IMG/VR virus record: IMGVR_UViG_3300019781_000026
Coordinates: 1-40,080 of that record
Length of the DNA stretch: 40,080 nt
Origin: a virus
Taxonomy: Duplodnaviria > Caudoviricetes
Strand: one strand, 5' to 3'
Shown: piece by piece, positions 6,275 through 24,508 of the stretch
How the letters are laid out: the number at the start of each line of letters is the position of its first letter
How positions within the stretch are numbered: the stretch's first letter is position 1
Notes under the pieces: model-generated
The model's input: the letters and a program-made list of their open reading frames with translations, nothing else
The model's database searches: none
What the model was told of the DNA's origin: nothing
Translations under genes and position numbers: made by a program

Positions 6275-6790
6275 TTACGCCCCAATCTCAAAGTGCATCC
6301 AATCGTAATTTTTCTCCCGGCCCAATCCTACAAAACCATGCTTATAAAAAATATCATTCATAGCTTTATATTCAGGCCGGGCAAATCTTGCAGTCTTTGA
6401 AGTTTCTTTAAGTGTATTACGGGCCGGGTCAAGGTCAATCGCTATTCCCCAAGCGTGGCGGCTCCATTTCGTTTTAGAACCTCTTTGCAGCCTTACGTTT
6501 ACACAACCGCCGAAAAGGTCAATACCTAACCTGTTTATTTCAGAGTAGCCGTAATGAGCCAGCAAATCAGTAAAGACGGCGGCTAAGTTTGCCGCTATTA
6601 GTTTATGGCATTGAATTTTGCTGACAGTCTTTGTGGTGTCCCAAGCTATCCGCATTGGGTATGGCAGTAATATAGATTGAAGGTTGTCCGGGTCTCCCGG
6701 TTGTCCGTACTTGGCAATAATCTGGCTGTCGTTTAACATAGATTTCTTTTTATGTTTAGCGTATAAATGGTAGTATAAAAATCCTAACAT
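6275..6790 (-). CDS. Endolysin, peptidase M15 family (alternative start 6739)
   Basis: [10 protein letters not shown] (SxHxxGxAxD) and DWMHFE zinc-peptidase motifs. Confidence 0.9.
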
Positions 6791-6792
6791 GG

Positions 6793-6882
6793 TTACGGTT
6801 TTTTACGTTTCTTCTTAATAGCCGGGTAAACCAGCACCCCGTTCTTTCGGTAGCGGCGGCGTATGTTGTGGATTACTATCAT
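6793..6882 (-). CDS. 29-aa strongly cationic peptide [29 protein letters not shown]
   Basis: ATG overlaps the spanin TGA; its TAA lies 2 nt before the endolysin ATG at 6790. Confidence 0.5.
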
Positions 6883-7409
6883 ACTGGCTTTTTTGTTTTG
6901 CGATATATAAAACCAATCAGCCCAAGTGCCAATATTCCCCAAGTTATGAATGATGATTTGCGCCACTTGTTGCGTTTGGATTTCATATCATCGTACTCAG
7001 CGGTACGTTTCTCAAGTTGTGTAATCGCAGATAACCTTTCGATACTGCACAGGTCTAAAGCTGCTGTATTTGTTACCCGCATAGTATCTGTTATGGTAAT
7101 TGTTTTTGTTACCACTTTGCCGGGTAGCTGTACCGTTTTTATAATGGTAACAGTATCTTCAAAAACTTTTACTTCTGTTATTGTGTCAATCGTATTACCC
7201 CACAAAGTATCGTACATGATAACGCTATCACCTTTTAATACTGAATCTTTGCATGGATAAATTCTACTGCAATAATCAGCCCCGATTGCCGGGAAGGTGG
7301 CCACCGCCTTACCATGCTGCACGGTGGCTTTACGCTGATTGTAGCAACCGCCTAATGTCATTACGAATAACAGTAGAACGGTTGCAATAACGAATAGGAG
7401 TAGCCTCAT
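6879..7409 (-). CDS. Unimolecular-spanin-like lipoprotein
   Basis: Lipoprotein signal (LGGC lipobox), beta-rich periplasmic part, coiled coil and C-terminal TM followed by basic residues; adjacent to the endolysin. Confidence 0.75.
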   Translation of the reverse strand: MRLLLFVIATVLLLFVMTLGGCYNQRKATVQHGKAVATFPAIGADYCSRIYPCKDSVLKGDSVIMYDTLWGNTIDTITEVKVFEDTVTIIKTVQLPGKVVTKTITITDTMRVTNTAALDLCSIERLSAITQLEKRTAEYDDMKSKRNKWRKSSFITWGILALGLIGFIYRKTKKPV

Positions 7410-7594
7410 TTGCCTCCCGTGTTAATCGTTGTTGTTGTCATCAATCGCAAAATGATATTGCCGATTGTAAGAACAAAGCCTGCAATCTTCGCTACTTGCC
7501 CCGAAGGGAAAGCACTTGAAAATTCGCCTGCTGCGGCTACTAACAGTCCAATTATGTTGAACCATAGCGTTTTGCTTTCATACCAATTTTTCAT
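7406..7594 (-). CDS. Holin-like 2-TM protein
   Basis: KNWYESKTLWFN N-terminus, two hydrophobic helices, LRLMTT tail; lysis cassette position. Confidence 0.7.
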   Translation of the reverse strand: MKNWYESKTLWFNIIGLLVAAAGEFSSAFPSGQVAKIAGFVLTIGNIILRLMTTTTINTGGK

Positions 7595-7605
7595 ATATCT
7601 AATTT

Positions 7606-7965
7606 TTAGTTTATTGAATCCGCTTTATCTGTTTTTTCATCTATCACATTTCTTATTCTCCTTTCTCCTTTTGTTTTCCCGTACTGAATAACATAAGAAC
7701 CAAAGAAACCAACTACAAAAAAAGAAGTCGCTTTCCATCCTGATATTTTGGAGTACGCCCCTTCAACTTCGTTATAGATAAAGTACCATGCAGCGACTGA
7801 TACAAAGGATAGCATGATGGAAAACCTATCCAAATATACATAATCTTTATACCAATCAAAAGGGACGTTGCCTACTCTTGCTGTCTTGTTCAAGTTAATC
7901 AACTTGCAAAGACAGTGAGCAAAAACGCCCAAAAGTCCGATTAAGAAAATTACAATGATATTCAT
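7606..7965 (-). CDS. 3-TM membrane protein (holin/antiholin candidate)
   Basis: Three hydrophobic segments and a charged C-terminal tail. Confidence 0.65.
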   Translation of the reverse strand: MNIIVIFLIGLLGVFAHCLCKLINLNKTARVGNVPFDWYKDYVYLDRFSIMLSFVSVAAWYFIYNEVEGAYSKISGWKATSFFVVGFFGSYVIQYGKTKGERRIRNVIDEKTDKADSIN

Positions 7966-7968
7966 ACA

Positions 7969-8397
7969 CTAATGATTTTTTAAATATTTTTCTATCCCCT
8001 TCTCACAATCCGCACTCCCGATGGAAGTAATTATAAACCTCACCACCTTACTTCGCCTTGTCAGATAATACAATGTTATTACTAACGCCAATCCACCTAC
8101 TGTAATTTGAAAAACAATATTGTAAATATCGTCTTTCTGAAAAATAAGATAGTAAGCCGCAAACAAACATTCCGCTATCGCTGCCGCCCTGCTTACATAA
8201 CAGAACTTAAAACTAAACGCAACGGCTAACATAAACAACGGGAATAGTAAGTTAGTCCCTACTGCCATGTTAAGATACATTCCGTTCCGGTAATAAAAAT
8301 CAGCGTCAATAAAATAAAGAACATTTGCCAACACTTGCAAGGTTACCAGTATCACCGGAAACCAAGAAATAGTAAGTATTGACATCCTTTTAATCAT
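7969..8397 (-). CDS. 4-TM membrane protein
   Basis: Four hydrophobic segments; translationally coupled. Confidence 0.7.
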   Translation of the reverse strand: MIKRMSILTISWFPVILVTLQVLANVLYFIDADFYYRNGMYLNMAVGTNLLFPLFMLAVAFSFKFCYVSRAAAIAECLFAAYYLIFQKDDIYNIVFQITVGGLALVITLYYLTRRSKVVRFIITSIGSADCEKGIEKYLKNH

Positions 8398-8912
8398 TTG
8401 CTATGTTTAGCGCATCCAACGGAAACAATCACCGTCCCATCTTCTTTACGAGGTACAACGGCATGGTAGTCTATAATTTTCAAAGTTCTTGTCCTGCCTG
8501 TTTTTATCGTATAACTCCCCGAAATATATTTAGTCCCGGTACTTATATTACTACTCCATTCTTTCCATGCCCTTTCCCGGTCTGTATCAATTATAAAATT
8601 AGTCCAGCCCGAACCTTTCATTTGTTCTTGTGTTGTTTCAAACAGTTCGCATAATGCCTCGTTAGCCAATACACATAGTCCCTGATGGTCGCAGATAAAA
8701 AAGCAATCATGCAGTAGCATTACAAGGCCATCTATTTTGCCTGAAACGAAATCAATGCTTTGCGTGTTGGTGTCAAGTTCCTTTTTATTTTCTTCGTATT
8801 CTTCTAAGAACTTTATTAACTCTTTTATCCGGTTGTACATCCAACGTAAGCCGCCAAAGAATACCCCCACTAAGGTTAATAATGTGAGCCATTCTTTCCA
8901 GTTAAAAATCAT
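8394..8912 (-). CDS. Membrane-anchored PAS-domain protein
   Basis: N-terminal TM, coiled coil, then FFICDHQGLCVLANEALCELFETTQEQMKGSGWTNFIIDTDRE...EDGTVIVSVG, a classic PAS pattern. Confidence 0.8.
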   Translation of the reverse strand: MIFNWKEWLTLLTLVGVFFGGLRWMYNRIKELIKFLEEYEENKKELDTNTQSIDFVSGKIDGLVMLLHDCFFICDHQGLCVLANEALCELFETTQEQMKGSGWTNFIIDTDRERAWKEWSSNISTGTKYISGSYTIKTGRTRTLKIIDYHAVVPRKEDGTVIVSVGCAKHSK

Positions 8913-9130
8913 TTACTTGTCTTTGTTCTAAAAAGCCATTTATCTAATCTATTGCCTGCCCATCTGCTAAGTTGAAAAAATGTGATACCCCCGAAAAGCA
9001 TTAATACTAATATTAACACCCCCGTAAATACCGATAAGGCCAATGTATCAAATAGACCGTGATGAAAAGCCAACGATACCGCCCTTTCCCCTGTTCCGAT
9101 ACTGCCCAAAATAAAAGATGTTTTACTCAT
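8909..9130 (-). CDS. Small membrane protein
   Basis: Long hydrophobic segment and basic C-terminus. Confidence 0.6.
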   Translation of the reverse strand: MSKTSFILGSIGTGERAVSLAFHHGLFDTLALSVFTGVLILVLMLFGGITFFQLSRWAGNRLDKWLFRTKTSK

Positions 9131-9318
9131 TACTTGGGTTTTGGTGTTCCTACTGTTCCTGAATTAATAGCCGTTGCAATCGCTTCCGCTTCCTCTAAGG
9201 TATCGAAAATTACGGCATCATTTACATTACCCCATTGACAACGGGCGTATTCCGGGTTATAGGAGATCATGTAAAGTTTCGTTGTCTCGTTGATTTTTAC
9301 TACAAATTCTTGTGGCAT
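9130..9318 (-). CDS. Hypothetical protein
   Basis: 62 aa; TAATG coupling with the next gene. Confidence 0.6.
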   Translation of the reverse strand: MPQEFVVKINETTKLYMISYNPEYARCQWGNVNDAVIFDTLEEAEAIATAINSGTVGTPKPK

Positions 9319-9339: not shown

Positions 9340-10086
9340 TTAATATATTGCTACCCATGAAGGTATTACACTTGCCGTTATAGCACTCATGTTTATCGTT
9401 GCGGGCAAATCCGTTCCGGTGGATGTGCCATACAATTTCGCTGAATTAGTAAACCCTAATGCTGTCCCGGCCATTGCCAAGTTATTTAATGCCACCCCCG
9501 AAGCCAATGCAGGTGCTGTCGTTTGCGCCGATTGGTTGTAAATCATAGCAACTACATAATTGCCCGGAGCCGCAACGTAAGGGGTAGTAAAGGCTATTGT
9601 CTGTACTGCGTTAGCAGCACTTTTCCATAAGTTTGAATTGTTAGCGGATGAAGCAACTAACGTTAGTAGCCCGGTTGTAGTGTTGTACCTGTATAATCCG
9701 ATACGATTATTATTGTCCCCTGTATAATTACCCAAGACACGGACATACACTTTCATACCAGTAAGTGTTGAAGGCTTTGGGACGTATATACTTGTGTACT
9801 TTATCTGCCCATCTACCAATGCCGTTGATACGTTGGAATAAAATAACCGCTGCCCCACCGTTTCGGCAATTATATTACTCCCGTAATATTGATAAGAAAG
9901 CACATCGTTATTGGCAACGGTAACTCCCATTGCACCCCACCAAATTGGTATGCCGGTGTTCGAATATACATTGGTCACTAAAACACTATCGGTTTCATTA
10001 AATTTTATAAAAGGGACGTTACTATGGTAAACAACTGTTTGACTATTTGCAATACTACTCAGTAGTAATAATATTATTAATCTCAT
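9340..10086 (-). CDS. Signal-peptide-bearing beta-rich protein (fibre/adhesin accessory candidate)
   Basis: MRLIILLLLSSIANS|Q signal; Thr/Ala/Asn-rich jelly-roll-like body. Confidence 0.75.
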   Translation of the reverse strand: MRLIILLLLSSIANSQTVVYHSNVPFIKFNETDSVLVTNVYSNTGIPIWWGAMGVTVANNDVLSYQYYGSNIIAETVGQRLFYSNVSTALVDGQIKYTSIYVPKPSTLTGMKVYVRVLGNYTGDNNNRIGLYRYNTTTGLLTLVASSANNSNLWKSAANAVQTIAFTTPYVAAPGNYVVAMIYNQSAQTTAPALASGVALNNLAMAGTALGFTNSAKLYGTSTGTDLPATINMSAITASVIPSWVAIY

Positions 10087-10853
10087 GGGAATGGTTTAAA
10101 AAATAAAAAGAAATTACTTGTATTCGTTGTCGCTCTCACTTTATACGCTATGGCTATTTCCCCCCAATCAGCACTACCCGATAATGTAGCCGGTGCTGTT
10201 TCAGTAGCGGCCCCTGATAACTTATACATACTTCGCATTCTCGTTTCCCCATCTGCTATTCCGTATAAGGTATATCCTGATCCGGCCGCAGATACAGCCG
10301 ATGTAAATTGAGTGCCTACAGTAGCTACAATCAATTCACCTGTTGCCGCTGTTGTCAATGTAGATACAGAAGGCGATGTTGATGTTCCAGTACCAGAACT
10401 ACTTGCATCAATTACAGTAGCGTTAGTAGTTTCACAGCCACTATATTCATCAACCGCCACTAACACATAGTTAGGGTCTGCATCACTAAGCGTTACGGTG
10501 ACAGATGTTACCCCTGAATTTACCTGTACCCCGTACGCCTGATATATTCTGAATGATGGCGAACCGCTACTCGTTACCGGGGAACTAACTACATAAGTAT
10601 TGCTGGCATTATCCGTAACTGATGTTACAGTAGTAGTTGTATTGTTATTGATATAAATACTAACAACTGCTAAATTATTCTGCGTTGTGGAAATCGTTGT
10701 GACCACAGTAGTAGAAAACCCATTCGAACCATCCTGAGTTTGCACCGCCGCCGCTGCCGTTACTTTTTCAGGTCTATGAATAGCGGTTAAGCCTGCCGGT
10801 TCGTAGGCAATGAATGCTGAACATAGAATGAATAGTATAATAAGTAGTTTCAT
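10083..10853 (-). CDS. Signal-peptide-bearing Ser/Thr-rich beta protein (receptor-binding/adhesin candidate); start revised to 10853
   Basis: MKLLIILFILCSAFIA signal-like N-terminus; ATG immediately after the upstream TAA; NFFLFF C-terminal motif. Confidence 0.75.
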   Translation of the reverse strand: MKLLIILFILCSAFIAYEPAGLTAIHRPEKVTAAAAVQTQDGSNGFSTTVVTTISTTQNNLAVVSIYINNNTTTTVTSVTDNASNTYVVSSPVTSSGSPSFRIYQAYGVQVNSGVTSVTVTLSDADPNYVLVAVDEYSGCETTNATVIDASSSGTGTSTSPSVSTLTTAATGELIVATVGTQFTSAVSAAGSGYTLYGIADGETRMRSMYKLSGAATETAPATLSGSADWGEIAIAYKVRATTNTSNFFLFFKPFP

Positions 10854-10855
10854 AG

Positions 10856-13852
10856 TTAATCCAAATATATTTGAGCCACATAATCCCATTTAGTATCGGT
10901 TGTATTATAAACGAATCCCCAGTATGCGTAATAAGTCCCCCTTATTGTTGAAGGGAGTGGTAAACTTGTACTGCCCCTAAAAACAGAGTTCCAGGTAGCC
11001 GTTCTATTTGTCCCGTCACCTTTAACTCTTATTGTTAATTTTTGCCCGTGTGCGATGGTTCCCGTTGGGGCGTTGAAAAGCAAATCGCCGGCTTGTGCAG
11101 TTATCACATACAAGTCCGTTACGTCTGCGTTTATCGTTGTGCTGGTGGTGTATGATGCGGCTGATACAACTTGGGGGGTGTAACGTCCCAATGTAGCCCA
11201 CGAAGCGTTACCGCTTGCATCGCTTGTAAGAACTTTGCCAACACCTTGTGCCCCGTCTGTAAGTTTTAGTGTATAGTTTGCGGTTGTTGCACCTGTTGCG
11301 GTTATGTCAAGACCCACGTTTGTTCCGCTTGTTGCGTTGGTGTTAGTTACTGAAATACGGCCACCTGTAACTGTTATTGCGTTAGTACCATTGGCACCGC
11401 TGCTTACAATATTTAAAACTTCGTTCGCCCCCGATTTTGCTGTTCCCGTACTTGTTAAGTCAAGCAATGTCCCCGATGATAAGAAATCGGATGAAATTTT
11501 AGCGGCAATTCCTGTTGTAAAACTATTGGGTACTAATACTTCTAAATACGAAGTAGGAGTCCCATTCCCAATACCTACGTTACCGCCTGACGTAATTAAA
11601 GCGTAATTATTAGTAGCATTACCAACGGATATTGACACTCCTGTATTAGTTGTGTGTGCACCTGCTGCCGAAAATAGTGCAGCCATATTAGCCGCCGAGC
11701 CTGAAGCAGTAGCGTTTATTGCCCTATTAGTTGTAGCTGTTCCACTTGCATTAAAAGTTCCCGCTTCATTTAAAGTACCCGCTCCTGATACAGTTGCGTA
11801 AATTGCCCTGTTAGTTCCTGCACCAGTATATGATTCAAAATACCCTGCTATGTTTGTTGGGGTAGTTCCACTATGCCGATTTGTAACACTCATTCCATAT
11901 GTGGTTATACTTGATGAAGCGTTTGCCCCGCTGACATCTATTTTAAAAGCCGTTTGGTCTCCCGCTGCTGCTGTCCCTGTGACTACTAAGTCTAATAATT
12001 TACCGCCCGCTAATGATGATGAGGCTATGTATTGCCCCGTTCCTGAGGTCAGGCTATTATAAGTTTGTGCGAATGCTGCACTTGTTGTTGCTTGTGTTGT
12101 ATTAGTTGAAGCCAACTGCAACGCCTGCCCGGTAAATGTCATTTGCGAACTTCCCGTCACCGCCCCGCTTGTGCTATACATTACCCTTGTGTCCGCAACC
12201 GTTGTAGTGAGTGCAAGTGTTGGCGTTGTAGTGCTATTCGTTACTGTACCATCGAAGCCGCTGCCGTCTGTGAAAGTGAACGATTGAACCGTTCCGACCT
12301 CCGTAGCCGTTACCGTAAAAGCATTACCGCTTCTACTCATTACTGCAATTCCTGCCCCGGTGATACTAAACGAACCTCCGCCGTCTGATAAGGTTACTAA
12401 CGGTGAAGTAGTACCGCTGAAAGATAACGTCTGAGCAGCACCGCCTGAAGGTACTACCCAAGTTAATACACCATCCCCGGCTACGTCTGTCAATGCACCC
12501 CCGGCAACATAAGCAGGCGGTAAAGAATATATAAGGCTTGTCGCTTGTGCTACTGTTTTAAAAGCGGTGTAGTTTGTTCCGCTGCCGCTTGGTTCTAATA
12601 TTCGCATTTCCCCGGAAGAAACCCCGTTGGTTAAAATTACATTGCCCGTAAATGTATGGCCTGCGGAGGCAAAATATTCGATTGATGATGTTGGGTCTAT
12701 TATATTAATATATGTACTATTCACGCTGCCTCCAATATCACCTATTGTAACATTCCCCGTATTATTTATATCTAATAAATTGCCATACGCCGTACTACTC
12801 ACTGTCATACCCCCCAATGCCGGGACTCTTACCCGTTCAACACTATCCGTTCGGATAACAAAGTCAACGCTGTCATGTGTACCAATGTAGTTAATGGTGG
12901 CTGATAACCCTGTATTACCCGTTACCCCCCAATAACTGCCGGTCAATGCCGGAAGATCTGCCGCTACTAAAGCCCGGAAGGTAGGGTTGCCACTACTGCC
13001 GTTCGGTGAAGCGAATACCAAATTTTGCAACTGCGATATTTGAGTAAACGACGTATTATGCGCCGTTTCCGTAGTGGTAAACAACGGTGATAAATCCCCG
13101 GTCGTTCGTAGATACGGGTCTAACATTGCAGATGTATCGGAAATATTCAGCTTCCCACCAAAAGCCATCGTATCAGATACCGTTAACCGATTATTGACGG
13201 CATCCCATCTTACATCATGTGTCCCAGGCGATGTTTGTACACCTTCCCAAACAAACCGTGTTGTATTTAATTTAAAGCTATCTGTAACTATACCGTATAA
13301 CCGCATATCATTAAACTGTAATCCTAACCCAGCCCCGTTAACGGTTCTTTCTTCTTCGATAGTGCCATCGTCTGTATAAATATTTACACCAGCGGACCCG
13401 GTACTATCAATGAAACCAAATATCGAAACGCCGCCTTTTACAAAAAAAACGCTGTCGCTTGCCGTTTTTCTGTAAACAGACGTTACCCATTTATTCGCCG
13501 TATCAGCAGGGGCTAACCCCACACTATCAGTGAAGGCTAAAAAATCATCCGGCCCTTTTGCGTAATAAACGGAATTACCACTTTTGAATACTGCACTAAC
13601 ATAAGTACGCCAGGTTGAATCCGTAAAATAATATAAATCATGATTCAGCGTATCCACCGCAATACCCCCTGCCCTATTCTGCTCATTCACTCTTACGCCA
13701 ACGGGGACACCACCGTAAACCGGCATCCTTGCGCTACTATCCAACTGAATAGATATATAGTCATACCTATTATTAAGTTTGGTATAGTTCGGGGGCCGTT
13801 GCGCTGAAGCGACCGAACTAAGTAGTAATAAAAAAAACAAAATCTTTTTCAT
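10856..13852 (-). CDS. Long tail fibre-like protein with Sec signal peptide
   Basis: Gly/Thr/Ala/Ser-rich beta repeats, GNVGIG..TP and VLTSDASGNASW fibre motifs, C-terminal GQKLTIRVKGDGTNR..TW...YNTTDTKWD domain; MKKILFFLLLLSSVASA|Q signal. Confidence 0.8.
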   Translation of the reverse strand: MKKILFFLLLLSSVASAQRPPNYTKLNNRYDYISIQLDSSARMPVYGGVPVGVRVNEQNRAGGIAVDTLNHDLYYFTDSTWRTYVSAVFKSGNSVYYAKGPDDFLAFTDSVGLAPADTANKWVTSVYRKTASDSVFFVKGGVSIFGFIDSTGSAGVNIYTDDGTIEEERTVNGAGLGLQFNDMRLYGIVTDSFKLNTTRFVWEGVQTSPGTHDVRWDAVNNRLTVSDTMAFGGKLNISDTSAMLDPYLRTTGDLSPLFTTTETAHNTSFTQISQLQNLVFASPNGSSGNPTFRALVAADLPALTGSYWGVTGNTGLSATINYIGTHDSVDFVIRTDSVERVRVPALGGMTVSSTAYGNLLDINNTGNVTIGDIGGSVNSTYINIIDPTSSIEYFASAGHTFTGNVILTNGVSSGEMRILEPSGSGTNYTAFKTVAQATSLIYSLPPAYVAGGALTDVAGDGVLTWVVPSGGAAQTLSFSGTTSPLVTLSDGGGSFSITGAGIAVMSRSGNAFTVTATEVGTVQSFTFTDGSGFDGTVTNSTTTPTLALTTTVADTRVMYSTSGAVTGSSQMTFTGQALQLASTNTTQATTSAAFAQTYNSLTSGTGQYIASSSLAGGKLLDLVVTGTAAAGDQTAFKIDVSGANASSSITTYGMSVTNRHSGTTPTNIAGYFESYTGAGTNRAIYATVSGAGTLNEAGTFNASGTATTNRAINATASGSAANMAALFSAAGAHTTNTGVSISVGNATNNYALITSGGNVGIGNGTPTSYLEVLVPNSFTTGIAAKISSDFLSSGTLLDLTSTGTAKSGANEVLNIVSSGANGTNAITVTGGRISVTNTNATSGTNVGLDITATGATTANYTLKLTDGAQGVGKVLTSDASGNASWATLGRYTPQVVSAASYTTSTTINADVTDLYVITAQAGDLLFNAPTGTIAHGQKLTIRVKGDGTNRTATWNSVFRGSTSLPLPSTIRGTYYAYWGFVYNTTDTKWDYVAQIYLD

Positions 13853-13854: not shown

Positions 13855-14157
13855 TTAATTATTTTCGTCCCACATTATAAAAATCTTTTCTTGGTTTACT
13901 ATTGTTAAGAATATAAACCCTCCCATACCATTAATACCGTTCCCCCCTGATAGCTGCCCGTTAAATGGGGTTTCAAAAGTAAAACTACCGTCCGAACTAT
14001 TATAAAGCACTTCCCTGTTTCCAGGCGTTCCGTCTGTTATTATATTGTACCCTATCCCTTCCCGTTTTACGCTTAGTATTTTTCTAAAAGCTAAGGTTGC
14101 AATAGTTATAGAACTATTGCCGGGAACAGTTCCGTATATATGGCTACTAACTTGCAT
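13855..14157 (-). CDS. Tail-associated protein (paralog of the C-terminal domain of 14147-14857)
   Basis: Shares V.REG...I...GTP.NR...Y......F...FN...IF..W with the upstream gene. Confidence 0.7.
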   Translation of the reverse strand: MQVSSHIYGTVPGNSSITIATLAFRKILSVKREGIGYNIITDGTPGNREVLYNSSDGSFTFETPFNGQLSGGNGINGMGGFIFLTIVNQEKIFIMWDENN

Positions 14158-14857
14158 CTTCCGTCCAAATTACAAATATTATTTCACCATCATTAAAAGG
14201 TATTGCCGGGTCAAAAGTAATTGTACTACCCCCCGTATATTTAGCTTGCCGATTAAGGGGTGTTCCTGTATCTACAATATCATGTTCTGTCCCCTCCCTA
14301 TCAACTTCTATTACCGTATGCCCCGCAAACGACCTACCAAAATGACCAACGCCTGATATACCGCTTTCGCCTTCACTCGTTACCCACCAATCTGAATAAA
14401 TAGTTTGGCACTCAACCGGCGGGTTAGGATCAACTTCAGTTATTGTTATGCCGCCTGTCCCCTCAAGTTGTAAATCAAACTCAGCAAAAGCATTCACTTC
14501 GCTGCTTATGTCATCGGTACGAACTAAAAACAAACCAGCTACTACCACAATGCCGCCGGAAACATCTTCGTAAACGAATTGCATTTCTATTTCACTTCGC
14601 CTGATAGCTTCCTGCAAAAAATAGAAATTACTTAATCTCGTTGCCGTGTTCCCGGTAGTTAATACCCCTTGCACACTTCCCCGGCAATCGCTTATCCGTA
14701 CCCGTTTTTTTCTAGATAGCCCGGCGTTAACATCTGTTTTTCCGATTAACTCATTTTCAAATTGAAAGTTGCAACTAAAGGCACAACCAATAGTGACGAA
14801 GCCGCTGCCGGTATTAGCCCGAACACTTACACCGCTGCCGTAAACTTCGTTGCTCAT
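14147..14857 (-). CDS. Second tail-tube-like protein with extra C-terminal domain
   Basis: IGCAFSCNFQFENELIGKT...GSVQG...FDLQLEGTG resembles the TP901-1-type tail tube fold. Confidence 0.7.
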   Translation of the reverse strand: MSNEVYGSGVSVRANTGSGFVTIGCAFSCNFQFENELIGKTDVNAGLSRKKRVRISDCRGSVQGVLTTGNTATRLSNFYFLQEAIRRSEIEMQFVYEDVSGGIVVVAGLFLVRTDDISSEVNAFAEFDLQLEGTGGITITEVDPNPPVECQTIYSDWWVTSEGESGISGVGHFGRSFAGHTVIEVDREGTEHDIVDTGTPLNRQAKYTGGSTITFDPAIPFNDGEIIFVIWTEDAS

Positions 14858-17373
14858 TTGGTAAGGTATTTAAAAGAGTTGCCTGTATATTGTTTATCTA
14901 CGTATTCGTTGCTGCACTCTGCGAAATAGGCCGTCCATTCGCAAAGGTGGCTATCATATTCATAGTGTAAAAGTAAGAATATTCTACCTATTGTATTTAG
15001 GTGAGGGTCTGCCATAACGTAACGGTTCAGCATAGACGGGGCAGGGTTGCTATGGTCAACCGTGCCATCAAAAGTCACCATCGTTCTATTGAACTGATTC
15101 CAAACGTCAAACGATTGAATTTCCCCGAACGGTTTCGGGAACTCCGGGCCGTCTGGTTCTTGTGCTGCATTATAAAATAAACCAGCCAACGGGTATAAAT
15201 AAATGGAGATTGTGATTTCAGCGGCAGATTCGTTTACCGTATCTGCATCGACCGCTATTGCCGTAACGTTACCAACTAAGCTATAATCACAATCGGTTAC
15301 CCTGGAAGTAATGTTATTAGAACTTGAACCAGTTATAACTATTAAAGTCCCAATAGGTAAATTCCAATAACCGGGGAGTGAAAAACTGTTACCGTTTATG
15401 AATGTTGCTGACCCTGTGTAGTAAGGCACTAAATCTCCGGCAATCAATAAGGCCCCTTTAAATAATTTCTTCGGACTATCGGAAATGTACACTTGTTTTT
15501 CTCTTACGTTACGGGTTGCCACGTCCTGCATTACTAACTGTTGCTGTCCGGTATATTTTCGGTATGAACCGTTAACCCATGCAAGGTAATCGAATGTAAC
15601 GCTGTCAATGTAAGTGTCTTTAGTAGCACCATATAACGAACTCCTATAAACGAGAATACGGATATACCCATCAACGGGGAGCTCCGCACTTTCACCATCA
15701 TACAGAGATACGCTTTCAGTTGTTTCGTCCGCTGCATCGCCTTCGTGGTAAAAATATCTCTGGTTCGTCCTGAATGTAGCGGTACATTGTATCCAATATC
15801 TTAAAGTCGGGTCGGTTGCCCCTGTATTTCTGGCATGATGTGTCCAATAAGTACCATCGTTACCGTATAAGCGAACTTGAACGTCCGCATCTCTATACGG
15901 CCCCGAACCGGCAACGTCCGAACTCAACCGCCTTGCAACACCGATAATAAACTTATCCTTTGCACTCATATAAATTTTAGAACTCATAACGAATGTGAAC
16001 CGGGCGGCATCGGCATCTAATACCAAATACCTTTCCGTTTCATAATCGTTAACGAATATTCTCTTTACATAAATGCCAGTTGTTTGTGGGTCATCACTTG
16101 AAGTATTTGACCATAATTTTTCCCAGCAATCTAAATCATAAGTCTTTTCGTTCGGGTCGCTGTCATCTATAACCGCCCCCCTTTCAAAATCAACATTGCA
16201 GGGTATCTCTTCGGGAGTTTCATATTTAAACGTTAACCGGCTTTCTTTTATAAGCCTATCGTTACTCATTACCGGGTCATCATTCATCCAGGAGTACGTT
16301 TGCCCTACTCCTATATTTTTACTATTCGTTTCTGTAAATTTCCCTATGAAATTACCTAAGTAACTCCACTCATAGACTGTATTCGTTGGCAATCCTATTT
16401 CTACTTCATCCACTCTTACTATTCGCCACACTCCCCAATCCTGAAACAGGGTAGCTTCTTCGCCAAGTATTCTTACTAATACTTCATAGCAATTAATGCA
16501 ACTTCCTACTTCGTCCTCAAATGTTTTTGCATCTAAATAATTCCATTTGAAAAAATGCCCGTTGCCGGTATTGTCATTATTCAAGTCTTGTGCTGTTACT
16601 TCCCGGATATTGAACGTAGATTTTATATTTAGGTTAGTTTCAATTTTAGACAATGCCCAGCATATAAAAGATAGAATATCATATTCATTTTCCGGGTTGT
16701 TGCCATCAAAATCAGTTAGCGGTATATCATTTAAAAATCCCAAACCATCCACCGCCACCAAATTAATAACGTTAGGGTCTGGCATAAATTCCTGACTAAT
16801 ATCAGCTAACGATAAGAAGCCAACGAAATTCAACACATCGTCAATATAATAATTAACCCGGAACGAATCATCACCGCCCTGTGAAAAATTATTTATGCTA
16901 ACATCGTTTGACGAATAAATCTGTATATTTAATTGCCTTGCCCGTATCGGCGTAAATTTATCTTCCGCATTATCAATAACAATATCCCGAACCGGGTTAT
17001 CTGTCATTTCTAAAGTAGTTATTTCTTCCTCCGAAGTCCAATAGATATTCCCCGTTGGTGTTTGTACGGTAAAAGTAAATTCATAATCCGCAAAAGGTAA
17101 TGTTATCGTTCGTGGGGAAGTTACACCGCCGGTATTGCTACTCCAATTAACACCACCGTCCGAACTGTAACCTATAGATGTACCCGTTGCATTAGCCGGT
17201 AATGTATCGAAGGTAAAAGTAAATTCAATGTTCGGACCTACTGTTTCCTGTGAAACAACGATATTAAACGGGTTGCTATTGCCGTCTAAAATATCAATAC
17301 GTTTAGTTACCTGGATATTTTCATTCGCCAAGTTGGTTTCAATATCTACATATTCGCCCCGGTATATTCTCAT
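14854..17373 (-). CDS. Large tail tip/baseplate protein
   Basis: 839 aa, acidic and beta-rich, directly after the tape measure; LVAVDGLGFLND motif. Confidence 0.7.
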   Translation of the reverse strand: MRIYRGEYVDIETNLANENIQVTKRIDILDGNSNPFNIVVSQETVGPNIEFTFTFDTLPANATGTSIGYSSDGGVNWSSNTGGVTSPRTITLPFADYEFTFTVQTPTGNIYWTSEEEITTLEMTDNPVRDIVIDNAEDKFTPIRARQLNIQIYSSNDVSINNFSQGGDDSFRVNYYIDDVLNFVGFLSLADISQEFMPDPNVINLVAVDGLGFLNDIPLTDFDGNNPENEYDILSFICWALSKIETNLNIKSTFNIREVTAQDLNNDNTGNGHFFKWNYLDAKTFEDEVGSCINCYEVLVRILGEEATLFQDWGVWRIVRVDEVEIGLPTNTVYEWSYLGNFIGKFTETNSKNIGVGQTYSWMNDDPVMSNDRLIKESRLTFKYETPEEIPCNVDFERGAVIDDSDPNEKTYDLDCWEKLWSNTSSDDPQTTGIYVKRIFVNDYETERYLVLDADAARFTFVMSSKIYMSAKDKFIIGVARRLSSDVAGSGPYRDADVQVRLYGNDGTYWTHHARNTGATDPTLRYWIQCTATFRTNQRYFYHEGDAADETTESVSLYDGESAELPVDGYIRILVYRSSLYGATKDTYIDSVTFDYLAWVNGSYRKYTGQQQLVMQDVATRNVREKQVYISDSPKKLFKGALLIAGDLVPYYTGSATFINGNSFSLPGYWNLPIGTLIVITGSSSNNITSRVTDCDYSLVGNVTAIAVDADTVNESAAEITISIYLYPLAGLFYNAAQEPDGPEFPKPFGEIQSFDVWNQFNRTMVTFDGTVDHSNPAPSMLNRYVMADPHLNTIGRIFLLLHYEYDSHLCEWTAYFAECSNEYVDKQYTGNSFKYLTK

Positions 17374-19460
17374 CTCACTCCCGCCCTCCCTTGCGCCCTT
17401 GACGTTCTTGCGTTCTGTAAAATCATATCATTACCCCGTAATCTACCGGTAACGACTACCCGCTGTAATTGACCGCCACCGCCTAACCCGGCTAACATAC
17501 CCCGCAATTTATCCAACGGGGCAACTACTTCCGGGTTTGATCTGCTGGTTCCCGAACCTTCACCGATAAGGGCAAGTTGTGGGCCGGTAACTAAACCACC
17601 GGAAGCGAAGCCTAATATTTTCCCGAATATGGCACCGAATCCTTTTGCACCCCCTATTCCCCCTGGTAATACTGCACTAAGGATGGCCGCTGTGATAGCG
17701 GCTGAAATAAGTTTTTTAATTAGTTGTGAAACGGCATCGCCGATCCCTTTGAAAAATGCTTTTAAAGGGTTTTCACCTTCTTTTATCGCATCAAATAATC
17801 CTGCAAAAGCAGGCTGTAAAATATTATTTATAACCGTTGCGGCCCGTATTGCCCCGGCTTCAATGCCGCTAAATAATTCTTTTGGTAAGTCAGCGAAAAG
17901 AGTATTAGTAGGGAAAAGACTTTTAAGAATGTTAGCCCGGTCTTTCTCTTTTTGCTCTAATCTTACCGCCGCATCAATAGTAACATCAACCGGTCTATCT
18001 TTAAAATAATCCGTGTACTCCTTGCCTAATACCGCTGCGAACCTTTCTGCATCGGTTCTGTTATCAGTTATAACCTCTTCAGGTGGTGGGTAGTTTACCT
18101 CAACTTCGGGGGTTATTTTTAGTTTTATATCTGTTATGCTAATACCCCCTTGTATGGCAAAATTAATCAGGTCAACTTGTTTCTTTAAATCCTCCCGACT
18201 TAATTTTAACTCAGGGTCAATAGTGACAGAAAACTTCTTGTTCTTAAAATCATCCAAAAACTTTAAAGACTTTTCAAACTCTTGCTGCTTAGTATCAAAA
18301 AATCTTACATCTAATTTTAAGTCAATTTGATTTTTAAAAGCATCTGATAATTTCTTTGCTTCGCTTATTGTGTCAGATACATATTTCTCATAATCAGCTT
18401 TTCGTTTATCTGATAAAGCCTTTGCATCTTGTGCAGCCTTTTCATTAACTGCTTTTTGTTTTTCTTGTTCGTCTGCAATGGCCTTACCTATCTCAACCGG
18501 GATATTCAACAAGTTTAATAAAGTACCTTGTTGTAACCCTTTCAAATCGTTCTCTAAAGATTTAACTTCTTTTCGCACCGCCTGGAATTGCGTTACCGCT
18601 GAAACCCCGGCTTCGTCTAATTTCTTAATGAAGTTTACCGGGATATTTTCTATACTACCAAACTGCTTTATCAGTTTATCCAACTCAGTTGAGTTGCCCC
18701 GGTTAAACGACCTCAATGCTGCATTGCTTTCACCGATATTAATAGATAACCCCGTTTGCTCTTTTCTTAACTCAGCAATCTTAGACTTTATTTTTTCAAT
18801 ACCCTCAACGTTCCGACCTATTTCGTCCGCATTGTTTGCAATGGTTAATGACGGACCTTTGAGACCCGCCAATTCATTTTGCAGCTTTTGCACCTTCCCT
18901 TTAAATTCTAAGGAGTCTTTGAAATTCTCAACATCGGCCTTAATGTCCCGCATCATATTACCGAACTTCCCGGCAGATATTTCAGCCTTACTAAATAAAG
19001 CGTCTGCCCCGAATATGGCCGTTTTCAATCCATCCAAAACACCAATAAGAAGATTCCCGGCTAATTGCCCCACCCCAAAAGCCCCGGCTATTTTAAAGAA
19101 AGATGCAGCCCCGTTATTTGCCGCATTGGATAACGTAGGTATTTGTGTAGCGGTTGTATTAAGAACACCTGATAGGCTTCTTAGTTTAGATCCTGCCAAC
19201 ACACCTGATTCACCAAGTATGGTAAACCCACTTGCCCCGGTTGTTTTTAACGTATTGGCAAGTGCTGTGATTGCACTACCCGCCTGCTTTGTTGATTGAG
19301 AAAATTTTGAAGAAACTGCCGTAGATGCAGTAGTTGCCGTGGATGCTAATTTCGTAAACGAACCCGCTGCCGTGTTCGCCGCCGCTGGTATATCTTTGGA
19401 TAAGGCTCTGACCGCCTGACTAACGTCCGCCCCTACCTGTATTTTAAGACCTTCCGGCAT
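17370..19460 (-). CDS. Tail tape measure protein
   Basis: Ala/Gly/Lys-rich helical protein after the tail chaperones; C-terminal FASGGLVTGPQLALIGE...PEVVAPL motif. Confidence 0.9.
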   Translation of the reverse strand: MPEGLKIQVGADVSQAVRALSKDIPAAANTAAGSFTKLASTATTASTAVSSKFSQSTKQAGSAITALANTLKTTGASGFTILGESGVLAGSKLRSLSGVLNTTATQIPTLSNAANNGAASFFKIAGAFGVGQLAGNLLIGVLDGLKTAIFGADALFSKAEISAGKFGNMMRDIKADVENFKDSLEFKGKVQKLQNELAGLKGPSLTIANNADEIGRNVEGIEKIKSKIAELRKEQTGLSINIGESNAALRSFNRGNSTELDKLIKQFGSIENIPVNFIKKLDEAGVSAVTQFQAVRKEVKSLENDLKGLQQGTLLNLLNIPVEIGKAIADEQEKQKAVNEKAAQDAKALSDKRKADYEKYVSDTISEAKKLSDAFKNQIDLKLDVRFFDTKQQEFEKSLKFLDDFKNKKFSVTIDPELKLSREDLKKQVDLINFAIQGGISITDIKLKITPEVEVNYPPPEEVITDNRTDAERFAAVLGKEYTDYFKDRPVDVTIDAAVRLEQKEKDRANILKSLFPTNTLFADLPKELFSGIEAGAIRAATVINNILQPAFAGLFDAIKEGENPLKAFFKGIGDAVSQLIKKLISAAITAAILSAVLPGGIGGAKGFGAIFGKILGFASGGLVTGPQLALIGEGSGTSRSNPEVVAPLDKLRGMLAGLGGGGQLQRVVVTGRLRGNDMILQNARTSRAQGRAGVR

Positions 19461-20132
19461 TGCTTAATTTTTTTGCGGCCTCTGCTACTTTGAACGAACG
19501 CAATACCTCAAACGCCTTTTCACTTATATTGCCCCTATCCGTATCCGTTGGTAATGGCCATAATTTATTTATCTTACTTGCTACTTTAGCCCCACCCATA
19601 TTAGTAGAGGCTATAATTACTGTCATACGCCGATACATTGCCTGCATCATTATATCCCTATCCCGAAGGCCATTGATAGCTAACACCAACTCCCGGAAAG
19701 TATATTGTCCTAACTCCCAGGGCCGGATTCCAAGTTCTCCAAAGGCAAGCTGTTCGATTCCATCGAAGTCTCTTTCGACTGATCCGCTACCTGATTTTTT
19801 TTTTCAGCGTCTTTTATTAGGTTTTGAACGTCCTCACTATTACGCCAAACCGTAATTATATCAGATAGTATCTGCTTACCTTCTTCCGTTTGTGCTATTT
19901 CATCAATGGCCCGGCTGAAATCTTCCACCGTCAGGATAGCCTGAATATTTTTATTCACACAATTATTTTCATAACCGCTGTGAATTATTCTGCTTAACCC
20001 AATATCGGTTAACGTTCCATCTTCTTCAATCAGCAGATCGGCGTTTTTGCCCGTCCTGATTGACTTATAAGACAGATAACCGAATTTCAGCCCGACCTCT
20101 TTGCCGGCAATGGTGATCCTTGTATAACTCAT
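19444..20132 (-). CDS. Tail assembly chaperone gpGT (programmed -1 frameshift product)
   Basis: A -1 shift at the A10 run (19795-19804) gives KKKSGSGSVERDFDGIEQLAFGELGIRPWELGQYTFRELVLAINGLR..., open into ORF 19444-19689. Confidence 0.85.
19710..20132 (-). CDS. Tail assembly chaperone gpG
   Basis: Lies between the tail tube and tape measure genes; EKKN slippery site near the C-terminus. Confidence 0.85.
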   Translation of the reverse strand: MSYTRITIAGKEVGLKFGYLSYKSIRTGKNADLLIEEDGTLTDIGLSRIIHSGYENNCVNKNIQAILTVEDFSRAIDEIAQTEEGKQILSDIITVWRNSEDVQNLIKDAEKKNQVADQSKETSMESNSLPLENLESGPGS

Positions 20133-20135
20133 AGT

Positions 20136-20585
20136 TTATGATTCATCATATTCATCCAGCACACCAACACCTGTGAACTCCCAGCTAAATGTAAGGAATC
20201 CATCACTACCGGCAGATGCGGCAGCACCAAGATTACCAAAGTAGCCGTTACCAAAGTTGTTGATCGCTTCACCTTCCGTAAATCCACTTGCTGCATCGGC
20301 TTCGCTTATATAGCTGAATTGTACTTTAGTACCATCAACTATAAGGGCTTTAATATCCTGGTAGTTCCCTTCCAATGCAGTAGGTTCTACATTCTGAACA
20401 GCGTTACCGCTTGCGCTAAATGTTGGGATACCTGGTTTTGCTTTGATACCGCAATTAGTCTCTTTAGTTGCAATATCTGCACTTATTGTAAATGTGCTGT
20501 CCTCGGTACATACGATAGTAGTCCAGTCCGTTTCCGGCGGCACCCTGTACTTGAAGTTTATTAGTTTACCTGCTATTTCTGACAT
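20136..20585 (-). CDS. Major tail tube protein
   Basis: TKETNCG and FLTFSWEFTGVG motifs; canonical position. Confidence 0.8.
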   Translation of the reverse strand: MSEIAGKLINFKYRVPPETDWTTIVCTEDSTFTISADIATKETNCGIKAKPGIPTFSASGNAVQNVEPTALEGNYQDIKALIVDGTKVQFSYISEADAASGFTEGEAINNFGNGYFGNLGAAASAGSDGFLTFSWEFTGVGVLDEYDES

Positions 20586-20595
20586 GGTATAAAAT

Positions 20596-21030
20596 TTAAG
20601 ATTGTGATTGTAATTGTAAAACCCTGTGAACGTTTCTAACGATTAAACGGTGATACCTGTTTGTACCATCGTCCTCTGAAATATATGTTGAGTCCCGTCT
20701 TATTACGGAAACAATTTGAATATCATTCTGCGAAGGCAAAGCACAATGTGCAACGTCAACCGGGAAAAGCAACTCACTTATTTCTTCGTCAATCTCCCCG
20801 GCAATAGCATCATTAATCATAGTGCTGAATTTAGTAACCACTTCCGTAATTATAACGGGGTTGCTCACACCGGATTGATTATTGCTACTATCCGTATCAC
20901 TTTCGACACGAAGTAAAACGTAATTGCCTTGTTCAGTAGCCGGGGCATCTACACGGTAAACAGGAACGGGTAACGTACCGTCCAATAATTCAAACCATGC
21001 TTTTAATACCCTGTTAGTTACGTTTATCAT
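20596..21030 (-). CDS. Tail terminator/completion protein
   Basis: Position; VPVY...AP....YVLL pattern. Confidence 0.7.
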   Translation of the reverse strand: MINVTNRVLKAWFELLDGTLPVPVYRVDAPATEQGNYVLLRVESDTDSSNNQSGVSNPVIITEVVTKFSTMINDAIAGEIDEEISELLFPVDVAHCALPSQNDIQIVSVIRRDSTYISEDDGTNRYHRLIVRNVHRVLQLQSQS

Positions 21031-21650
21031 ATCCCGATAATTTTCGGTTGTGTTACACTTGACGGCATTATAACTTTTACCTTGCTTACGTTTGCTATCC
21101 TTGCTTCAACATTACGTACCATTTGCGGCCAAACTATGTGCATCTGCTTAAAAAAATACGGATGCGGTTTCACACCATTCTTTAAGATACTCAAAGCTAT
21201 TGGCCATGCAGCGGCGTAATCTTCGGCGTATCTGCTAACCTTGCTGCCTATTCGCTTTCTGGTTTTTGTGCTGTACCTACCTGTTATACCTTTCCGGGCT
21301 ACCCATCGCACTATCATTCGCAATAGTTCCATAAAATCACCTTTAGGCCAAGTTATGTCAGCAATTAGCTTTTCAGTCCCCGGTATCGGTCGATACTTGG
21401 CTTTAGTTCCAAACTCCATAAAAGGGGCGTAAAACTTTTGAGCCACAATATCATACTTCATATTACTTCCGTAATAACTGATAGCCGAACGCAAAGCACT
21501 CTGGTCTGCCGGTGCATCGTTCTTAGCCAATTTTACCCACTCTTGCGACATCGTTTGCAACTCACCGTCTACAATTTTCGGTAACATTTCAGCAACGGAG
21601 GCAAATTCTGCCTTCAACCCTGCTAATCCTGTTACTTTAACTTTAAACAT
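21027..21650 (-). CDS. HK97 gp10-like neck protein
   Basis: AP.D...LR..I, YAPFMEFGT and KPHPYF motifs. Confidence 0.85.
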   Translation of the reverse strand: MFKVKVTGLAGLKAEFASVAEMLPKIVDGELQTMSQEWVKLAKNDAPADQSALRSAISYYGSNMKYDIVAQKFYAPFMEFGTKAKYRPIPGTEKLIADITWPKGDFMELLRMIVRWVARKGITGRYSTKTRKRIGSKVSRYAEDYAAAWPIALSILKNGVKPHPYFFKQMHIVWPQMVRNVEARIANVSKVKVIMPSSVTQPKIIGI

Positions 21651-21969
21651 CTGACTTACTTGTTGCCGTTAGTCGGTAATAAAATTGCTTCTCATCTATT
21701 GCCCGTATATCCGATATTGTCCACTTACGACCTGAATAAATAACCTTCCAATTACAGTTAGGGTGTAAATCAAAACGAAAACGTATTAGAAAATCTTTTG
21801 TCTCCCCTAATTGCGTTTGCCCATTCTGGTAAGCCCTGAATCCTGTTGGGTTACTTATTTCAGCCCAAAGGTTCCTGCCTACTCCCCTGGTTTCTTCCCA
21901 ATTCCCCGCCGTTGATTGTGCAGAAACATACTGCACTAACTGAATCTGTTTTCTATTGCCTATTGCCAT
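21643..21969 (-). CDS. Head closure/head-tail adaptor (SPP1 gp16-like)
   Basis: WAEI, FLIRF and VIYSGRKWTI motifs; position. Confidence 0.8.
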   Translation of the reverse strand: MAIGNRKQIQLVQYVSAQSTAGNWEETRGVGRNLWAEISNPTGFRAYQNGQTQLGETKDFLIRFRFDLHPNCNWKVIYSGRKWTISDIRAIDEKQFYYRLTATSKSDV

Positions 21970-22523
21970 GCTTTTACCCTCCTATACGGCCTTGCAATAG
22001 CTGCCGCCCGAATAGGTGAACCGGGCAACTCTTCGTCCCCTCTATGTTCATAGGCCCAAGCCACATAAGCTAAAATAGAATCTTCAACCCACTTCGGGTA
22101 ATCGGTATAACCAGCTTCATAAGTCGCTGTAATACGGTTGCAAAACTTATCTACTATTTTCGGGTATTGATTACCGATAATTGTGTAGTCAGTACTTTCA
22201 ATAGTATCACCTTCGCTATCCGTTAATACAACTGAACCAATAAGCGGACCCGGTAATTCATAGTATCCTGCCTGATTTAAAAGAGCTACTGTTAAAGTAC
22301 GGGGAACAATAAATTGACCTGTAAACTTTTCCACCCACATACGGCCTTCTGTTATCATGGCCTCAATAAGTGTGTCATCAAAATCAAATTCTTGTTCCCC
22401 GCTTTCATCACTTGTAAACCCTTCCAAACGTAGATAGTTCTTCGCCTGCGTCAACGTCACCGGTTCGGTAATGTCTCCGCTGTCAAAATCTTCATCTACG
22501 TTTATTTCACGGTTTACTAACAT
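21960..22523 (-). CDS. Head-tail connector (HK97 gp6-like)
   Basis: EPVTLTQAKNYLR, DDTLI, YEAGY and YEHRG motifs. Confidence 0.85.
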   Translation of the reverse strand: MLVNREINVDEDFDSGDITEPVTLTQAKNYLRLEGFTSDESGEQEFDFDDTLIEAMITEGRMWVEKFTGQFIVPRTLTVALLNQAGYYELPGPLIGSVVLTDSEGDTIESTDYTIIGNQYPKIVDKFCNRITATYEAGYTDYPKWVEDSILAYVAWAYEHRGDEELPGSPIRAAAIARPYRRVKAWQ

Positions 22524-22525
22524 GA

Positions 22526-23833: not shown

Positions 23834-23845
23834 GAGACATAAGTT

Positions 23846-24508
23846 TTAGAGTGAATTAATGAAGGTGTCAATCACCCCCGTTATCTCATTCGGCTTATGC
23901 TCGTAAGTGGAATTACCCGGCTCCTTGCTAAGTGAACGTATTGAGTTCAAATGTAATTCTATTTCTTTGAATTTTCCATCAGAAAAATTACCTTTTTTTA
24001 ATTTCAGTTCCAGCCAATCAATTTCTTCGGCCAATTCAGAAGCTGATTTAATACCTAACGTTGGCGTTTTTTCATTAGCCCCCCAGTTTGTTAAGGTGGA
24101 ATATTCCCACAACTTCCATTCATAAACTTCCCGAACATCACCTACCATTTTTTCTTTCTTAGCCTCCAATCCTACTGAATGTTCAAGTGACCGGCCATAT
24201 TCTGCATACAATTTGTAATCTTCATAAACATCTTTGCTTAATTGCTTCTTCATATTAAGCTGCCCCAATATTTCAAGGTAAGCAGATGATTGCTTTCCCT
24301 CAATAGGAACTCCTAAAAGCAGGGTGGTATCGTGGTTAAGAAACCATCGAACCCGATTAAAGTTTTCCTTTAGAGTTTTATTGAAACTACCATCCATTGA
24401 CCGGTCTTTACTACTATCCACATTGCCGATAGCATTAGCGGCTACCAACACACGTCCTTTTTCATCCACATCTTTTATCTGGCTATCAAAATTTTTATAT
24501 TGTTTCAT
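23846..24508 (-). CDS. HK97-type prohead protease (start revised to 24508)
   Basis: GNVDS..D....GSF.KTL, FLNHD, HSVG and LWEYSTL..WGAN motifs. Confidence 0.9.
   Translation of the reverse strand: MKQYKNFDSQIKDVDEKGRVLVAANAIGNVDSSKDRSMDGSFNKTLKENFNRVRWFLNHDTTLLLGVPIEGKQSSAYLEILGQLNMKKQLSKDVYEDYKLYAEYGRSLEHSVGLEAKKEKMVGDVREVYEWKLWEYSTLTNWGANEKTPTLGIKSASELAEEIDWLELKLKKGNFSDGKFKEIELHLNSIRSLSKEPGNSTYEHKPNEITGVIDTFINSL

Follow-up and report, generated by a model that had tools for sequence, protein, structure and literature searches.

Three Leader-Bearing Genes between the Tail Tip and the Lysis Cassette

The virus record IMGVR_UViG_3300019781_000026 was analysed over its whole length (the window, 40,080 bases with direct terminal repeats; CheckV estimate 60%). 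It carries an HK97-type siphovirus gene set on the minus strand, in which terminase, portal, protease, capsid, and head–tail connector genes were recognized by PHROGs and Pfam scans, and represents an uncultured, long-tailed phage whose hosts are likely soil or freshwater Chitinophagaceae. In minus-strand order, a tape-measure-sized gene is followed by the tail-tip hub, a second tube-like gene, a gene for 100 amino acids (aa), three consecutive genes with Sec-type leaders, and the lysis cassette. These three genes had been taken by a sequence-only reading as a possible exported fibre system, and they lie as that reading described them, with the start of the middle gene now corrected to 10853.

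10856..13852, minus strand: 998-aa fibre-like protein; 17-aa Sec-type leader, Gln at +1, no Pfam, PHROG, NCBIfam, or PDB hit
13802..13852, minus strand: fibre leader MKKILFFLLLLSSVASA, A-S-A at −3 to −1, then Gln; sequence and rule-based call
10083..10853, minus strand: 256-aa all-beta leader protein; leader, pro-segment of about 16 aa ending KVTA, then mature domain
9340..10086, minus strand: 248-aa protein with leader and Gln; starts MRLIILLLLSSIANS, then Q; phrog_14726 (tail fibre), E = 4e-5

Successive genes are separated by 2 nucleotides, again by 2 nucleotides, and joined by an ATGA overlap, and neither a terminator nor intergenic room was found between the adaptor-like 100-aa gene and the fibre gene. 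The longest open reading frame (ORF) of the middle gene begins at 10889 and runs 12 codons into the end of the fibre gene, while the start of MKLLIILFILCSAFIA sits at 10853 and yields 256 aa; the latter is most likely the true start, because its TAACT-ATG context is identical to that of the fibre gene. Mis-called starts were rejected as a source of the leaders once the start contexts had been examined, and a holin or membrane-protein identity was also rejected, since the bodies are predicted to be large, all-beta, and soluble. Promoter scans remained at chance level (40 occurrences of TANNTTTG against 49.9 expected), and the GC content of the leader-gene region, 0.41–0.48, is not far from that of the remaining genome.

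Gln at +1 had been reported for two of the three genes, and it does follow MKKILFFLLLLSSVASA and MRLIILLLLSSIANS. The Sec/signal peptidase I (SPase I) pattern is clear in the rule-based test for the 998- and 248-aa proteins and ambiguous as to cleavage site for the 256-aa protein, in which the site between AFIA and Y has Phe at −3. Its Cys11 is not conserved among homologues, and the three window proteins have no conserved lipobox. In relatives of the 256-aa protein, a pro-segment ending V/A-x-A precedes the mature domain. Pro-segments of 15–25 residues ending K-x-x-A or V-x-A follow some other leaders as well (window 10754-10808, minus strand; the fibre of related locus L001, 9186-9305), which suggests a second processing step between leader and mature domain.

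Conservation of the Leaders

Leaders were called with a rule of our own, not with SignalP; the rule asks for a basic n-region, an uncharged hydrophobic window of 8 residues, and small residues at −3 and −1. It was positive in 7 of 58 window genes: besides the three leader genes, these are a spanin-like lipoprotein, two small genes whose products look exported, and one probable false positive. All 16 other virion and packaging genes in the stretch from 13855 to 28968 were negative. The genes immediately upstream of the fibre, all leaderless, are the following.

13855..14157, minus strand: 100-aa adaptor-like protein; homologue of the tube-like protein's C-terminal domain
14147..14857, minus strand: 236-aa second tail-tube-like protein with adaptor-like domain; phrog_1407 (major tail protein), E = 5e-11
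14854..17373, minus strand: 839-aa tail-tip hub; structural-protein relatives in Cellulophaga and Flavobacterium phages

Ten of 22 related loci (numbered with an L) were used for comparison, after exclusion of six near-duplicates, the window's own contig, and five loci ending too early. Across these loci, none of the 97 ORFs ahead of the adaptor or encoding it has a leader call, whereas the first gene after the adaptor has one in all nine loci reaching that far, with Gln at +1 in eight; more leader genes often come after it. These controls reject chance hydrophobic starts as an explanation. Moreover, a scan of viral contigs for the fibre domain gave 48 loci, and in the 16 strongest (one of which repeats L001, several being near-duplicates) a leader gene lies within 1.5 kb behind a tube-like gene in every case, with Gln in 15 and an adaptor match in 14. 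The other 32 matches, weak and partial, come from other phages, lack both upstream genes, and show no leader call, many of their starts being unresolved; the fibre module has leaderless cousins among ordinary phage proteins. Viral-locus searches with the whole fibre and with one family member found no loci.

A profile search for the fibre family returned 720 clusters at E up to 0.001. Homologues without the leader had been named beforehand as evidence that would speak against export, and among the best 149 of the 720 clusters, found with a leader-containing profile, the leader is present in 146 and Gln in 131; all 149 also match a leader-free profile. Since the search profile contained the leader, leaderless family members are under-counted. 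Gln at +1 is less regular in the short proteins, being found in 63 of 119 homologues of the 248-aa protein and in only 4 of 39 of the 256-aa protein. In Bacteroidota, SPase I cleavage that exposes Gln at +1 leads to pyroglutamate capping (PMC5837995).

The leaders might instead stay uncleaved and serve as inner-membrane anchors, with the fibres tethered there or held on a platform for assembly. The unusual leaders of the 256-aa protein and of the L001 fibre, with a pro-segment and no Gln, would fit such an anchor; the typical fibre-family leader, with its short h-region of 8–11 residues, its A-x-A/G site, and Gln in 131 of 149 members, has the pattern of an SPase I substrate (PMC5837995), and an N-in anchor would still place the body in the periplasm. 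Anchoring thus appears very improbable.

The 998-aa Fibre and Its Family

The 998-aa protein consists of the leader, a conserved mature N-terminal domain of about 80 aa, a sequon-rich proximal region of 340 aa, a mosaic Gly/Thr/Ser-rich shaft, and a C-terminal beta domain. The first post-adaptor genes of relatives have the mature N-terminal domain of about 80 residues in common and diverge beyond it, and this domain is likely the part that docks on the virion. The layout is that of a conventional side fibre, with a conserved N-terminal part, a mosaic shaft, and a variable binding or enzymatic tip, and the gene position, after hub and adaptor and before the lysis genes, is typical of a siphovirus side fibre or receptor-binding protein. 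Nevertheless, the protein is not filed as a plain conventional side tail fibre, because its leader is conserved, as opposed to leaderless assembly in the cytoplasm.

No family match was found for the window fibre in Pfam, PHROGs, or NCBIfam, and phmmer against the PDB gave no significant hit; tblastn of the fibre N-terminus and of both short proteins against 50,697 cultured-phage records also gave no match. Its 64 homologues align mostly to the shaft (residues 250–500). ESM Atlas matches to residues 18–160 all remained below 0.9 with TM below 0.5 (PTL_trimer and Mtd_N clusters) and are leads only. Proteins in the fibre slot of relatives carry tailspike-type parts, namely a K1-lyase C-terminal domain, GDSL esterase, beta-helix, polysaccharide lyase, or laminin G domain, and 7 of 64 scanned family members have K1-lyase C, S74, BppL_N, BNR, pectate-lyase-like, beta-helix, or laminin G domains. 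PKD, lyase, and lipoprotein genes also occur in the same cluster of relatives. The earlier statement that the genome has no other obvious long fibre gene is borne out by a PHROGs scan of 64 window ORFs, in which the sole tail-fibre match is the 248-aa gene (phrog_14726, E = 4e-5).

A relative of the tube-like gene turned up in just one bacterial genome, a Chitinophagaceae metagenome-assembled genome (MAG), which suggests Chitinophagaceae as the host family. The mature N-terminal domain of the fibre occurs in 1 of 301 Chitinophagaceae genomes, this being the MAG itself, where the best match adjoins tail genes; therefore, the domain belongs to a phage family and is not a captured host gene. A second phage-like contig of the same MAG (L031, 1468-1851) has a fibre domain with leader and Gln, behind upstream genes that differ and have no match to the adaptor profile.

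Glycosylation Motifs as a Sign of Export

Bacteroidota O-glycosylate D-[ST]-hydrophobic motifs, and the motif marks non-cytoplasmic proteins (PMC12871550). The motif was counted as D-[ST]-[AILVMT], as the ratio of observed to expected occurrences, with the reversed motif as control. Across the family of 149, the ratio is 7.0 in residues 18–100, where it is due in part to one conserved, possibly structural site, then 3.4 (100–200), 2.6 (200–300), and 2.3 (300–400), and it falls to 1.6 at 400–600 and 1.2 at 600–900, while the reversed motif stays at 1.0–1.2 past residue 100. The forward motif exceeds the reversed one in 106 of 134 family proteins and falls below it in 15. Leaderless virion ORFs of the same phages give 0.87 and spanin-like lipoproteins 7.2, and when the 350-aa segment used for the window fibre was applied unchanged to nine relatives, it held 38 motifs against 11.6 expected. 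The enrichment at residues 100–400 is thus an independent support for export, and the fibre is likely sugar-tagged on its proximal 400 or so residues. Taking the conservation of the leader, Gln at +1, and the motif enrichment together, export through Sec and SPase I is well supported and very likely.

The spanins of the window and its relatives are likely glycosylated as well: the spanin-like lipoprotein of the window (6879-7409, minus strand) has 6 motifs against 0.8 expected, and the six such proteins of the window, L003, L005, L006, L013, and L014 together have 27 against 3.7.

The Two Short Proteins

The model of the 248-aa protein (predicted local distance difference test, pLDDT, 88.6) ends in a C-terminal beta-sandwich and resembles, in comparisons with BFVD, minor tail and collagen-fibre proteins from phages of Streptomyces, Gordonia, and Mycobacterium, so that a receptor-binding role with a tip-domain fold of this kind is likely. 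The 256-aa protein is modelled as all-beta (pLDDT 91), and its three best Atlas clusters are 87–91% viral. When the three leader proteins and the tube-like protein were searched against the sequences of solved structures, nothing usable emerged. Both short proteins have homologues of two kinds: a leader was called in 73 of 119 homologues of the 248-aa protein (no call in 46) and in 24 of 39 of the 256-aa protein (no call in 15). The leaderless 256-aa forms start at the point where its mature domain starts; therefore, the leader is an addition to a phage module of a known kind. In leader-bearing 256-aa homologues the glycosylation motif is depleted (4 against 21.5 expected), whereas in leaderless ones it is not (14 against 13), and the depletion may reflect avoidance of glycosylation.

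Such leaderless forms (46 of 119 and 15 of 39) would also fit a dual fate: the virion would receive, in the usual cytoplasmic way, a leaderless isoform from an internal start or a fraction that is not exported, and the exported fraction would have another task. At codon 37 of the 256-aa gene, an in-frame GTG lies about where the leaderless homologues begin; however, its upstream context is GC-rich, unlike the AT-rich starts. The fibre's N-terminal domain has no conserved internal Met and begins directly at Gln, so that an internal start would cut the domain, and the motif enrichment implies exposure to the periplasm. A dual fate is thus improbable.

Hub, Adaptor, and Comparable Systems

Hub relatives were found in 12 records, including Cellulophaga phages phi10:1, phi18:1, phi12:1, and phi17:1 and Flavobacterium phage 11b. 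In the siphovirus phi10:1 (KC821618), the hub homologue gp088 and the tube-like gp089, to which the window's tube-like protein has a weak match (hhalign E = 2e-4, probability 44), are followed by gp090 and then by gp091-095, all five of which have a leader and Gln; as in the window, the lysis genes come after this run. According to the GenBank record notes, which are the evidence used here for phi10:1 and phi18:3, gp090-094 are structural proteins detected by tandem mass spectrometry (MS/MS), and gp095 is structural by similarity only. In the podovirus phi18:3 (KC821620), gp085-087 have leaders and Gln and are likewise MS/MS-annotated as structural, while the remaining eight MS/MS-annotated proteins in the two stretches examined are leaderless by eye. 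The record notes examined do not mention the leaders. Phages phi18:1 and 11b have leaderless genes in the fibre slot, those of phi18:1 being MS/MS-annotated. Since the mature proteins are not detectably homologous to those of the window, the link to phi10:1 and phi18:3 is one of gene order and leaders. The phi10:1 gp092-094 (L026) and phi18:3 gp085-087 (L029) proteins share parts at 57–83% identity.

A candidate for the fibre socket is the 100-aa adaptor-like protein. Complex prediction with three copies of the mature N-terminal 93 residues of the fibre and one adaptor gave scores of 0.06 and 0.01 against a mark of 0.32, with controls not folded, and carries no weight for or against this. Phage T5 makes its L-shaped side fibre pb1 in the cytoplasm. 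There, a tube duplicate, p140, and the collar protein p132 form the ring and collar onto which the N-terminus of pb1 is grafted (PMC10038345). In the window, too, a second tube-like protein and a small protein precede the fibre gene; a sequence search against solved T5 proteins gave no match, and the likeness is an analogy of layout only. A difference is that the T5 collar is lost without the fibre (PMC10038345), which indicates co-assembly, a course that export would rule out.

Virion proteins made with a signal peptide are known from the filamentous phage M13, whose coat proteins pIII and pVIII are Sec-dependent; unlike what is proposed here, they do not leave the inner membrane and are added to a particle as it extrudes, with no lysis and no tail. 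The mosaic adhesive trimer (MAT) fibres of Bdellovibrio bacteriovorus combine a signal peptide, a conserved beta-rich N-terminal domain, a mosaic phage-like fibre, and a variable tip (PMC10769870). By description they resemble the window fibre in leader, N-terminal domain, and mosaic shaft, and they demonstrate that export, with folding outside the cytoplasm, is possible for fibres of this kind; however, MATs are chromosomal and stand on the bacterial surface, whereas the window genes are phage late genes tied to tail genes. Porphyromonas gingivalis phages carry five Q-rule genes of unknown function, with SPase I leaders and Gln at +1, which Matrishin et al. read as host-envelope modifiers (PMC10367356). 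According to a study on a Bacteroides phage, the targets of phage diversity-generating retroelements have no signal peptides (PMC6199706).

Proposed Assembly Route and Its Alternatives

The three genes likely encode a side tail fibre and two accessory host-binding tips. The sequence itself shows the leaders, Gln at +1, the tight coupling within a late virion run, and the fixed slot behind tube- and adaptor-like genes. From host biology, SPase I would then cleave the leaders, pyroglutamate would form, and the virion-proximal 400 or so residues of the fibre would be O-glycosylated. Having no route over the outer membrane, the proteins would wait in the periplasm until, after the action of holin and endolysin, the fibre's N-terminal domain could bind a leaderless adaptor ring near the tail tip, in the manner of T5 p140/p132, and the short proteins could bind the fibre or the particle. 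That exported fibres mature in the periplasm and dock at lysis on tails built in the cytoplasm is fairly probable. Its parts differ in strength: membership of the three proteins in the virion is quite likely, because of their fixed place behind tube- and adaptor-like genes, the tip fold of the 248-aa protein, the tailspike domains of relatives, and the MS/MS annotation of phi10:1, while we infer periplasmic maturation, joining at lysis, timing, and docking site. Thus, the exported fibre of the sequence-only reading holds as to export and indirectly as to fibre and virion identity, and its joining at lysis stays an inference.

Display of the proteins by the infected cell, the other suggestion made at the outset, is weakened, as searches found neither a signal for an outward route nor an integrase. 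[quoted passage not shown] T9SS cargo, autotransporter, and lipoprotein adhesin identities were rejected, given that there is no sorting domain, beta-barrel anchor, or conserved lipobox. A prophage moron was also rejected: neither tyrosine nor serine integrase or recombinase was found in the window (controls gave hits in all 14 genomes and in 12 of 14, respectively), there is no terminator or room between the genes, and the domain occurs in 1 of 301 host-family genomes.

Several points weigh against the export of virion fibres as proposed. The leader calls come from a rule-based test, not SignalP, and the phage is known here from genes alone; the leader inside the search profile biases family hits towards leader-bearing ones, and family members are related, so that pooled counts overstate their independence. 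In the whole window fibre, 9 motifs stand against 5.7 expected (p = 0.11), all of them within its first 340 residues, and the stronger figure for 350 aa (9 against 2.1, p = 1e-4) belongs to a segment chosen post hoc. Leader-bearing homologues of the 248-aa protein are not enriched (80 against 79), nor are 34 fibre shaft homologues (104 against 125) or phi10:1 gp091-095 (5 against 12.7), and D-S-T in the N-terminal domain also occurs in a leaderless non-Bacteroidota-like match, so the conserved motif is perhaps structural. No homology is detectable between the mature phi10:1 and phi18:3 proteins and those of the window, and MS/MS on a purified lysate can pick up co-purifying proteins. Moreover, a siphovirus and a podovirus have the exported modules in common, so this tail adaptor need not be the docking site.

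The last two points would also suit exported helpers that are no part of the virion, such as envelope-retained or lysis-released soluble adhesins, receptor decoys, capsule-degrading helpers, vesicle cargo, or exclusion factors, with the 839-aa hub alone recognizing the host. Exported proteins normally end up in the envelope, the cluster of relatives also has PKD, lyase, and lipoprotein genes, and Matrishin et al. take the Q-rule proteins of P. gingivalis phages as host-membrane modifiers (PMC10367356); however, one of these is a 144-aa non-fibre protein. In addition, no outer-membrane export signal was found, the adaptor and fibre genes leave no room or terminator between them, the leader genes are constantly paired with tube- and adaptor-like genes, the same slot in phi18:1 has leaderless MS/MS-annotated structural genes, and with no integrase there is no lysogen to display the proteins. 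Non-virion helpers are thus unlikely, and assembly of periplasmic fibres onto the tail at lysis is preferred.

Tailed-phage particles are regarded as completed in the cytoplasm before lysis, and an exported, host-modified fibre added at lysis would, if true, be a second assembly route. The balance tips slightly towards the view that many Bacteroidota sipho- and podoviruses build their particles in two compartments, heads and tails in the cytoplasm and fibres in the periplasm, with lysis as the last assembly step and host glycans on the stalk. Periplasmic fibres would then be completed by host enzymes, namely signal peptidase, glutaminyl cyclase, and the O-glycosylation system; phage infectivity would be influenced by the host genes for Sec, for the cyclase, and for O-glycosylation, and the host range or stability of progeny could depend on the glycans of the last host. 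Sorting bacterial from phage genes by their signal peptides would also discard such fibres as host cargo. One may speculate that host glycans stabilize the stalk and that particles are armed only at release. In the literature covered, which excludes subscription papers, no title or abstract opening reported Sec-exported virion fibres in tailed phages; the route appears new in print, while the part itself, a side fibre with accessory tips, is of a known kind.

Other Features of the Window

The remaining tail genes and the lysis genes belong to the same minus-strand order.

20136-20585, minus strand: tail tube gene (PHROGs/Pfam)
17370-19460, minus strand: tape-measure-sized gene (PHROGs/Pfam gene order)
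6275..9318, minus strand: lysis cassette downstream of the leader genes, in the same gene run; membrane proteins, holin-like gene, spanin-like lipoprotein, M15 endolysin

Immediately after the three leader genes lies a leaderless 62-aa gene (9130-9318, minus strand) with a match to phrog_23382, of unknown function (E = 0.002). The first large gene of the lysis cassette (8394-8912, minus strand) combines an N-terminal membrane helix with a PAS domain (PF08447, E = 1.7e-6), and its product is possibly a sensor-type lysis regulator. Between the head-morphogenesis and protease genes, a leaderless gene for 188 aa (24522-25088, minus strand), which had no family match in PHROGs and Pfam scans, encodes a Gly-rich linker and a C-terminal beta domain, possibly a head decoration or short head fibre. 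Five genes lie between the small and large terminase genes (28965-32836, minus strand); one encodes an FkbM methyltransferase (PF05050), and the other four, with no Pfam, PHROG-named, or NCBIfam hit, look by eye like glycosyltransferase genes. Their products may modify the capsid or tail in the cytoplasm. Finally, two small leader genes lie outside the tail module (32833-33087 and 33526-33783, minus strand), one with an SPase I-like leader and the other with a lipobox-like Cys; similar small helical genes with leader and Gln come after the fibres in L005, L006, L012, L016, and L020 and are candidates for periplasmic chaperones or exclusion proteins.

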